Source of the DNA: Anaerolineae bacterium
GTDB lineage: Bacteria; Chloroflexota; Anaerolineae; UBA1429
DNA: 64,000 nucleotides
NCBI GenBank assembly: GCA_963675785.1
Contig: OY776562.1
Coordinates: 2,976,001-3,040,000, forward strand
Direction: 5' to 3'
Part shown: one piece after another, positions 6,871 to 8,737 of the stretch
How positions within the stretch are numbered: position 1 is the stretch's first letter
Layout of the letters: every line of letters begins with the position of its first letter
Position numbers and translations under genes: made by a program
The notes under the pieces: model-generated
Seen by the model: only the letters and a program-made list of their open reading frames with translations
What the model was told of the DNA's origin: nothing
The model's database searches: none

Positions 6871-7558
6871 TCCCCGACCATCCAAGCTAGTGAGTGGGCT
6901 CCGCGATACGTTTTTAGGTCTGTGTATGCGATATGAGCAAACTCTGCCAATAATACGACATGGTATTCTACCAACCCCTAAAATAGCTGTCAAGCAGTGC
7001 TAAAATGCATGTTTGTGCAATGTGCCCTCTTGTTCTTAGGGTTTCAATTTCAGGGGATTTAGAGAGATTGTGCTACTTTTAACCGTGCCATTCGATTTAG
7101 TTCTAGGGTGAAAGGCCCCAGTGTTTTAGGAGCAAAGTCAGAGCTAGTGTTGAAACTTGAACTAGATTTAACGACTATTCTTTTACTATAATCACAAATA
7201 GAGTCTTTGGATGCAACTATTTGGTCAGGAGACGTGGTTCGCGCCGTGGACTTTGGCATCGAGGCAGGTTAGGAGCAAGATAGTTTCTTTATAGTTAATT
7301 GAAATAACCACATCATTATTGACTGCAGTTCCTGATGGGGCGTGAGCATGCGCCGAGAGTCGTTTGTTTGGTGCTATGTGCACAAAGTTTTGAGCTACGG
7401 TGCCTGCTGCGAGGAAAGGCTCTTCTAGCAGAACTGTAAAAGTGCGGCATCATTTGAGAACTGGCTAAGCAGCATCAAGAGATTTTTCAGAATAGCAGCT
7501 TCTAATCTGGATTGGTACGATAGCCGTGGAGATGAATGCGTCACAAGGGCATGACCAC

Positions 7559-7597
7559 AAAATAAGAGGACATCCTACAGGGATGTCCTCTTATTTT
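7559..7597. terminator. Bidirectional intrinsic terminator
   Basis: aaaataagaggacatcc-tacag-ggatgtcctcttatttt, a 17-bp perfect stem that includes A/T tracts on both sides. Confidence 0.85.
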
Positions 7598-7925
7598 ATG
7601 ATTCTAGCGCTTTGCGTACAGCCTGAATAATTTGGAATCCATCAGCTGTGCCCACTGCTGCCAGTTGATTGTTTACAAAGGCGAGGGGATAAAATACGTA
7701 TCCTCGCTCATGCTCTGTTTGCTTGATAAGCTGAGCATATTCTTGCGGAAGCTCACCATTGTCTATGTCAAAGTAGGTCAAGCTGACCTGGTCGCCGAAC
7801 ATACGCTCGAGTTGAAGCCGTGTGATCTCGCTAGTCTCCGCCGAAGACCTGCGCGGGCCTCAACCACCGCCGCAGAACTCGGCACCGGTCTGGCCGAGAA
7901 TGAGCACCTTAACTTTTTCCGCCAT
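7596..7925 (-). CDS. Putative selenoprotein, YuzD/DUF1462-like thioredoxin fold, CGGGU motif (109 aa)
   Basis: ATG at 7925 behind a GAGAGGG RBS reads MAEKVKVLILGQTGAEFCGGG-TGA(7862-7860)-GPRRSSAETSEITRLQLERMFGDQVSLTYFDI...FYPLAFVNNQL, in frame with track ORF 7596-7802; hairpin follows the TGA. Confidence 0.8.
7828..7853 (-). promoter_or_regulatory. Bacterial SECIS-like hairpin downstream of the in-frame UGA
   Basis: mRNA CGC-A-G-GUCUUC-GGC-GGAGAC-U-A-GCG; the apical loop starts with G about 18 nt after UGA, matching bacterial SECIS geometry. Confidence 0.65.
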
Positions 7926-7966
7926 GTATACCCTCTCATACCTTTATACCCAGGGTGGGTACGCAA

Positions 7967-8032
7967 AATATACCATTGATGGTCTCGTCAGTCAATCGGC
8001 CGGTTGACACCTGTACCCCTCAACCATATAAT
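7967..8032. promoter_or_regulatory. Back-to-back sigma70 promoters (selenoprotein candidate on minus, HAD phosphatase on plus)
   Basis: Plus: TTGACA(8004-8009)-17 nt-TATAAT(8027-8032). Minus: TTGACT(7995-7990)-17 nt-TATATT(7972-7967) with an extended TG. Confidence 0.8.
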
Positions 8033-8122: not shown

Positions 8123-8737
8123 ATGCCTATCAAGGCCTTTGTCTTTGACTGCGGAGGCGTGCTTTTTCGCGATGGTGACCTGACGCCCTATGACGTCTGG
8201 GCAGAGCGTGCTGGAATTACACCAGAGGCGTTACGTCAGCTTTTATGGGCCAGTGATTTTTGGCGTCAGGCCGAGTGTGGCCAGATTACAGATGCACGTT
8301 ACTGGGAATTGATTCTGCAAGAGCTGGGCCTCGACGATGAGACTTCACCCCAGGATCTTAAGCAGGATCTTTGGACAACGTGGGAGCTTGATTCTGCCCT
8401 GATAGAAACGATTGACGAGCTCCGAAAGCACTATTCCGTTTCAATGCTTAGCAATGCAACTGATGATCTGGAGTGCATTCTCGATACGTTTGGGGTTTCG
8501 GATCGTTTTGAGCATATCATCAATTCTGCACGGGTAGGCACTGCCAAACCCGATAAAGCGATTTTTGCCCACACGCTCGAACGAATTGGCTTTGAACCAG
8601 ATCAAGTTGTATTTATTGACGACCGCGCTGAGAATATCACTGCAGCTTCGGGTGTGGGGATGCATGTCATCTGGTATGTTGGTCTAAATGAACTGCGTCG
8701 CCGCCTCTCCTTGTTCGATCATAACCTCTCTTTTTAA
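8123..8737 (+). CDS. HAD family phosphatase (YihX-like)
   Basis: Motif I 'FDCGGVL', motif II 'LSNA', 'KPD..IF', motif IV 'FIDDRAEN'; AGGAG RBS. Confidence 0.9.
   Translation: MPIKAFVFDCGGVLFRDGDLTPYDVWAERAGITPEALRQLLWASDFWRQAECGQITDARYWELILQELGLDDETSPQDLKQDLWTTWELDSALIETIDELRKHYSVSMLSNATDDLECILDTFGVSDRFEHIINSARVGTAKPDKAIFAHTLERIGFEPDQVVFIDDRAENITAASGVGMHVIWYVGLNELRRRLSLFDHNLSF

Follow-up and report, generated by a model that had tools for sequence, protein, structure and literature searches.

YuzD and the proteins of the Pfam family DUF1462 (PF07315) are single-domain proteins of about 100 to 110 residues, and YuzD possesses a CxxC motif after the first β-strand, β1. To our knowledge, the function of YuzD has not been established. 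A small thioredoxin-like fold is also found in ArsD (PF06953, NF033727; structures 3KGK and 3MWH), which has a vicinal cysteine pair, carries its reactive residues in the loop following β1 and occurs in the context of ars genes. Thioredoxin-fold proteins that use selenocysteine (Sec, U) include Sec-containing thioredoxin, glutaredoxin, peroxiredoxin, DsbA-like and AhpD-like proteins, and a further small thioredoxin-like family with Sec forms, the HUIPC-motif thioredoxin-like (seleno)protein (NF047660), is catalogued by NCBI. Here, we describe a gene from an Anaerolineae bacterium of the phylum Chloroflexota, which is located on the minus strand at positions 7925-7596 of a 64,000-nucleotide stretch of contig OY776562.1 (assembly GCA_963675785.1, positions 2,976,001 to 3,040,000), referred to below as the window. 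These positions very probably constitute one gene encoding a 109-residue, thioredoxin-fold protein of the DUF1462/YuzD type, in which the UGA at codon 22 is decoded as Sec.

The predicted protein shares with YuzD and 1XG8 the single-domain architecture, the length, an aligned reactive residue and several motifs, but has Sec in place of cysteine. Furthermore, its C-G-G-G-U motif corresponds to Cx3U and not to CxxC, and only the second position aligns with a cysteine of the solved relative, Cys22 of 1xg8_A. It resembles ArsD in its small thioredoxin-like fold (template modelling (TM) score 0.52) and in the placement of its reactive residues; however, it has no ArsD match, no vicinal cysteine pair and no ars context, and its genome lacks an ArsA above the cut-off. 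As in the known thioredoxin-fold selenoproteins, Sec would replace a redox cysteine at the start of helix α1, homologs with cysteine exist, and an element of the selenocysteine insertion sequence (SECIS) type lies within the coding sequence after the UGA; in contrast to them, the window family is a separate sequence family with a longer and variable active-site loop. The protein differs from the HUIPC family in its motif and does not match it: the cut-off of NF047660 is 105 bits, and none of the 22 family members described below comes near it, the best being one member with an E-value of 0.0034, while one cysteine-containing relative reaches 20.4 bits.

The reading frame starts with an ATG at 7925-7923 and continues with MAEKVKVLILGQTGAEFCGGG up to the TGA at 7862-7860 (codon 22), which is followed by 87 sense codons and a TAA at 7598-7596, giving a product of 109 residues when the TGA is read through. 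The mechanical list of open reading frames (ORFs) contains only a 68-residue tail (7596-7802). An earlier note on this DNA, made from the letters alone, had proposed this hidden frame with a promoter and a ribosome-binding site ahead of it, and the frame, the truncated entry and both signals were all found (Table 1). A search of 41 related genomes with stop codons read through yielded 23 matches, 22 of which hold exactly one TGA. In the alignment of these 22 genes, the U column is invariant and lies within a conserved C-x3-U-G-P-R-R-S-S-x-E-T motif. The approximately 21 codons upstream of the TGA show in-frame conservation at the protein level, with an invariant E16 and with G11 and C18 conserved in at least 90% of the genes, and each gene possesses a start codon and a Shine-Dalgarno-like sequence, GGAG or GAGG being present within the 18 nucleotides preceding the start codons of the homologs. 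Among 401 sampled genomes of the phylum there were 13 more TGA forms in other families, and one TGA form (L125) was found in a sister class; in all of these the TGA occupies the same column. Taken together, all 36 intact relatives that protein search identified in Chloroflexota have their TGA in this one column. Genome G250 encodes, at locus L113 (G250:C145:3725-3949, minus strand), a second, more distant paralog, whose upstream frame reads ...LQSCGUGSSCGPSCGSDC... and which, with its in-frame TGA in a cysteine-rich loop, may be a further Sec form.

The counterpart of the UGA in more distant homologs is a cysteine codon. In the sister class, the gene is present in 31 of 251 genomes, and 31 of 32 matches are free of stop codons; in the 29 cysteine-encoding loci extracted from this class, the U column is occupied by TGT or TGC, and the surrounding motif is mostly C-x3-C-G-x-D-W-S. 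A profile search of 1.84 billion representative proteins gave 295 matches at an E-value of at most 0.001. At the U column, 151 of these database proteins could be aligned: 77 have cysteine, 67 begin only after the column, five have tryptophan and two have tyrosine. The earlier note had asked for homologs with either cysteine or a conserved TGA at the aligned position, and both were thus recovered. It had also anticipated that standard gene callers would truncate the gene, which is borne out by the 67 proteins starting past the column, as these are truncated gene calls; a word-indexed protein search found only two 68-residue tails. The five public entries with tryptophan at the Sec position (GGWGP...; P0003, P0007, P0009, P0013 and P0062) presumably stem from a pipeline that read TGA as tryptophan.

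The UGA is followed by a hairpin of the kind that bacterial Sec decoding uses. The note had placed a hairpin with a G-initiated loop about 18 nucleotides past the UGA, and the element GGUCUUC/GGC/GGAGACU at 7849-7833 agrees with this description: its stem starts 11 nucleotides after the UGA, its loop starts at the 18th nucleotide, and its pairs covary in relatives. Covariation was assessed in the 35 TGA forms that protein search had identified; a further 56 genes, identified with a DNA pattern (see below), were excluded because they had been selected by the combination of TGA and hairpin itself. Of the cells belonging to the seven proposed pairs, 95.9% are paired, and sliding the partner columns lowers this value to 40-57%. 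Both sides have changed in five of the seven pairs, for instance GG/CC to AA/UU or U-A to C-G. RNAalifold independently predicted six of the seven proposed pairs, and the first base of the loop is an invariant G in the 35 sequences. Codon usage points in the same direction. All 22 genes use TCT for the serine at U+5, whereas only 8 of 107 serine codons elsewhere in the same genes are TCT, and 21 of 22 use TCG at U+6, compared to 18 of 107 elsewhere. At least six of the seven pairs are formed in every one of the 35 TGA forms and in L125, whereas a single one of the 29 cysteine forms reaches this number; across the sequences compared, the hairpin goes with the TGA and not with cysteine codons. 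A search of the region with Rfam found no family for the SECIS-type hairpin, and the sole match was a chance small RNA on the terminator (19 bits versus a threshold of 440).

The organism appears equipped to use such an element. Its single-contig genome of 3.22 Mb encodes selA, selB and selD, which score 556.5, 319.4 and 385.7 bits, respectively, and a tRNA-Sec, which was detected by both ARAGORN and Rfam (64.2 bits); all of them are above the curated cut-offs. The selD gene itself carries an in-frame TGA (G000:C1:352208-353143, minus strand, locus L011, outside the window; ...TTAAGUAAKTGPE...), and the hairpin GGGUC/CUGA/GACCC, which starts 11 nucleotides after this UGA, is comparable to that of the window. 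A second Rfam match to tRNA-Sec outside the window (G000:C1:69106-69191, minus strand; 47.6 bits, gathering threshold 47) is probably a long-arm tRNA, as ARAGORN reports only one tRNA-SeC. Among the 22 other genomes holding the gene, selA exceeds the cut-off in 21. Genome G008 was considered as a genome without Sec machinery, but this was rejected, as only selA was undetected and selB, selD with its TGA and tRNA-Sec are present. The UGA at codon 22 would thus be decoded by the ordinary bacterial Sec route, in which SelB together with Sec-tRNA(Sec) would recognise the small hairpin inside the coding sequence, here presumably the stretch encoded by the codons for (R/W)-S-S-x-E-T, whose stem begins 11 nucleotides after the UGA.

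For family assignment, the read-through protein was scored with U handed on as C. It matches Pfam DUF1462 with 28.7 bits (cut-off 25) over residues 14-102, a match that spans the TGA; the 68-residue tail by itself scores 25.6 bits, and no other DUF1462 locus exists in the genome. The cysteine relatives of the clade mostly remain below this cut-off, which is passed by 3 of 15 tested, and one source labels a cysteine relative 'disulfide oxidoreductase YuzD'. A comparison of the family profile with the PDB revealed one solved relative, 1xg8_A (S. aureus SA0798, E-value 7.7e-7), to whose Cys22 U22 is aligned. The YuzD-like motifs 'Y.DI' and 'FYPL..N', to which the note had drawn attention, are common to both sequences in this alignment. 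The thioredoxin fold that it had suggested was obtained in an AlphaFold2 model built with 22 relatives, which reached a predicted local distance difference test score (pLDDT) of 89.7 and a predicted TM score (pTM) of 0.82. The modelled order of elements is β1-α1-β2-α2-β3-β4-α3, with β1 formed by residues 5-11. Foldseek ranks 1xg8 first (E-value 2.5e-6, TM score 0.68, 22% identity), followed by thioredoxins, ArsD and glutaredoxins with TM scores of about 0.5. In the model, Cys18 and Sec22 are predicted to lie in the loop between strand β1 and helix α1, the place of the active site in thioredoxin-fold proteins. Furthermore, the nearly invariant Tyr79 and the invariant Pro80 precede strand β3, the position at which the cis-proline of thioredoxin folds is located. 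By its Pfam score and modelled fold, the read-through product is a predicted member of the DUF1462/YuzD superfamily.

The spacing between the reactive residues had been regarded as unusual in the earlier note, which described a Cx3U in place of a CxxU motif. The spacing itself is real, but it is not peculiar to the Sec form, since the cysteine relatives mostly have Cx3C-G; it is a trait of the family. The nearest upstream cysteine lies three residues from U in 18 of the 22 genes found by protein search. In the 53 unique genes found by the DNA pattern, the spacing is three in 27 and four in 19, with extremes of 0 and 5. The clade of the window thus typically, but not always, has Cx3U. The pattern itself, a TGA followed by the hairpin, had matches in 58 species genomes, 56 of which are family genes, and the record titles of these 56 genes name Anaerolineae, Anaerolineales or Chloroflexota and, in one case, Caldilineae. 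Pattern matches in Gemmatimonadetes and Puniceicoccaceae were rejected as chance matches, as the gene is not present there, and in the genomes searched the family appears only in Chloroflexota. In a maximum-likelihood tree of 36 Sec and 29 cysteine forms, one branch separates the two (Shimodaira-Hasegawa-like approximate likelihood ratio test 98), and a single change of state therefore suffices to explain their distribution; this is a quick tree of short proteins, in which the U column was left out, the residues encoded by the hairpin were kept in and the cysteine forms come from one class. The 53-residue fragment P0098, a cysteine form close to the Sec clade, is not included in it.

Thus, the locus is a well-supported selenoprotein gene with an ordinary decoding mechanism, and it is highly likely that selenium would actually be inserted at codon 22. 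Several observations nevertheless count against it. In G015, one of the 23 relatives, TGA and hairpin are separated by one nucleotide less, and the frame is broken as a result. When the window's hairpin is folded by itself, its stability is only slightly out of the ordinary (26 nucleotides; -10.9 kcal/mol, z-score -2.4, 5 of 200 shuffled sequences equally stable), and a 66-nucleotide fold of the hairpin region reaches a z-score of -1.5; the case therefore rests on the comparison with relatives. This comparison has weaknesses of its own. The stem is almost invariant within the Anaerolineae clade, and the covariation therefore stems from few deeper clades and not from independent events. The cysteine controls belong to a more distant clade, in which the protein also differs at the hairpin codons, and part of the contrast between TGA and cysteine forms is therefore divergence. 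Moreover, the confidence of the model is lowest (pLDDT 72-74) in the loop of residues 12-27, which contains Cys18 and Sec22, and the neighbourhood in the window, comprising a HAD hydrolase, a Na/Ca exchanger and a penicillin-binding protein, gives a redox role no support. In the relative from G015 (L098:224-330, G015:C6), the ATG...CRGGU sequence and the hairpin are kept despite the broken frame; either this copy is decaying or a run of G and C was misassembled.

The frame break in G015, a one-nucleotide change just past the TGA, and the fact that gene callers give only a tail, 68 residues long in the window, would also be expected if the TGA were a genuine stop, that is, if the locus were a pseudogene, a 21-residue leader peptide followed by a separate gene of 68-87 residues, or an assembly error. 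We consider this the least credible of the explanations, as the 21 upstream codons are conserved as in-frame protein with a start codon and a Shine-Dalgarno-like sequence, the Pfam match and the fold model, in which β1 is formed by residues 5-11, require both halves, and conservation of the TGA is not confined to one class of the phylum. A sequencing error, which the earlier note had named among the possible refutations, does not account for the TGA either: contigs of four runs from four studies, one of which may be the source of the window's assembly, cover the TGA, and the four assemblies agree at this position. It is only slightly less improbable that the UGA is read through as tryptophan or cysteine by a near-cognate or suppressor tRNA without selenium, or that TGA is a sense codon in these organisms. 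The tryptophan present at the site in five database proteins shows that some pipelines translated TGA in this way; however, the residue at the site in homologs is cysteine and not tryptophan, and 7 of the 22 family genes terminate at TGA, which is therefore still a stop codon and not a general sense codon in these organisms. In addition, a TGA is found at the known Sec site of selD, the Sec machinery of the genome is complete, and the hairpin accompanies the TGA and not cysteine codons. On all points at which the note had said that its proposal could fail, namely the Sec machinery, the residue at the aligned position in homologs and the reality of the TGA, the outcome favoured the selenoprotein.

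The function of the Sec-decoded protein is less certain than its decoding. The best-supported role, with about an even chance, is that of a thiol-disulfide oxidoreductase, which would cycle between a selenol/thiol form and a Cys18-Sec22 selenenylsulfide, the latter being formed during thiol/selenol-disulfide exchange. As the main rival, it has to be considered that the protein might be an ArsD-like binder or chaperone of soft metals or metalloids, with Cys18 and Sec22 as ligands of As(III), Sb(III) or similar ions. The ArsD structures 3kgk, 3mwh and 3ktb are among the Foldseek matches (TM scores 0.52-0.54), the cysteine-rich relative P0014 reaches 24.7 bits with Pfam ArsD and 23.8 bits with NCBIfam chaperon_ArsD, both below the cut-off, and reactive residues in a flexible loop with a spacing of 0-5 suit a ligand site better than a rigid CxxC motif. 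This role is nevertheless unlikely: the window protein has no ArsD match and offers only two candidate ligands, no ars gene adjoins it in the window, and the best ArsA score in the genome is 105.9 bits compared to a cut-off of 650. Furthermore, the recurrent neighbours in 56 Anaerolineae loci are a protein disulfide oxidoreductase, a CoA-binding protein and a LonB-like protease and not ars genes. An arsenic-operon connection was accordingly rejected for this genome, given the unrelated neighbours and the absence of an ArsA above the cut-off. Similarly doubtful is the idea that the family is absent from every catalogue and that its flexible Cys-x(0-5)-Sec loop carries a ligand, be it a metalloid, a soft metal, persulfide or selenide, instead of serving a disulfide reductase, with the flanking CoA-binding protein and protein disulfide oxidoreductase as partners in some Anaerolineae. 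If true, the protein would be a Sec-based relative of the ArsD-type chaperones outside arsenic operons.

For the oxidoreductase function, the genes adjoining related loci provide a hint. In 12 of the 56 loci, a protein disulfide oxidoreductase (TIGR02187, 288 bits versus a cut-off of 185) is encoded downstream on the same strand, which hints at a redox role; in 15, the gene is preceded by a gene for a CoA_binding_2 protein, and in 21 a LonB-like protease gene lies downstream in convergent orientation. In the genome of the window, the protein disulfide oxidoreductase is encoded at genome positions 3117871-3118488, about 134 kb from the Sec gene. In one subclade of the Anaerolineae (L040, L047, L050, L051, L056, L057, L062, L068, L070, L077, L080 and L081), the Sec gene lies between the CoA_binding_2 and TIGR02187 genes on the same strand, an arrangement that may represent a small redox gene cluster. 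In L081, the reading frame of the Sec gene stays open for 213 residues (about 3-642 nucleotides after the TGA) and extends into the start of the downstream gene, which resembles protein disulfide oxidoreductases; this is due to either a missing stop codon or a frameshift.

The earlier note had considered an undescribed selenoprotein subfamily possible. This holds for the sources covered, in which the family is not mentioned and has no NCBIfam model, and does not extend beyond them; the family may already be listed somewhere under a generic name. No model of NCBIfam (June 2026 release) covers any of the 22 family members, and no meaningful match was obtained. Literature searches linking DUF1462, YuzD or ArsD to selenocysteine or selenium returned nothing relevant, and searches on selenoproteins in Anaerolineae, Chloroflex and Herpetosiphon returned nothing on this family. 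Three selenoprotein families have been reported in Chloroflexi (Zhang 2006, PMC1794560) and are not named in the covered part of that article. The nine new selenoprotein families of deep-Sep do not include this one in the covered part of the article (PMC12013277), and BSepDB, which lists 111 families in its supplement, makes no mention of it in the covered passages of the article text (PMC13326102). As the decoding is that of the bacterial textbook, nothing new about recoding is to be learned from this gene, and its practical value lies in annotation: a whole family of small, redox-type proteins of the Chloroflexota is stored publicly as fragments of 53-95 residues or with tryptophan at the putative active site. 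Adding it would raise the selenoproteome counts of the Anaerolineae, which are abundant in digesters and sediments. Since Sec is used almost only at reactive sites, this would also provide the first strong hint that the loop residue of YuzD/DUF1462 proteins may be catalytic.

Table 1. Features of the selenoprotein locus, given in positions of the window.
Feature	Position	Strand	Basis
Predicted full selenoprotein coding sequence, 109 residues	7596..7925	-	Sequence and translation; stop codon included
In-frame TGA, codon 22, proposed to be read as selenocysteine	7860..7862	-	Invariant alignment column; Cys in relatives
Cys18 codon TGC, likely partner of Sec22 in the Cx3U motif	7872..7874	-	Cys18 conserved in at least 90% in the 22-gene alignment
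SECIS-type hairpin, stem GGUCUUC/GGAGACU, loop GGC	7833..7849	-	Folding, covariation, frozen codons
Shine-Dalgarno-like GAGAGGG, 5 nucleotides before the ATG	7931..7937	-	Read from the sequence
Sigma-70-like promoter match TTGACT-17-TATATT with TG extension	7967..7995	-	Consensus match only
Intrinsic-terminator-like 20-bp hairpin overlapping the stop codon, then UUUUG	7556..7600	-	Folding

The terminator-like hairpin at the end of the gene has a folding energy of -30.5 kcal/mol (z-score -8.3), and none of 200 shuffled sequences folds equally well. As this hairpin overlaps the stop codon and runs into UUUUG, and as the gene has its own promoter-like site and ribosome-binding site, the 109-residue gene appears to be monocistronic. 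One of the four runs covering the locus, X5, differs from the window at 7530 and 7573-7580 by three substitutions, one insertion and one deletion, which are confined to the loop of the terminator hairpin and the region just beyond it; its coding sequence is identical. The gene is surrounded by the genes for a divergent HAD hydrolase, the Na/Ca exchanger and a class A penicillin-binding protein and a 66-residue ORF without family. A perfect TTGACA-17-TATAAT match on the plus strand (8004-8032) faces the HAD hydrolase gene (8123-8737), and the selenoprotein gene and the HAD hydrolase gene therefore seem to share a divergent promoter region.

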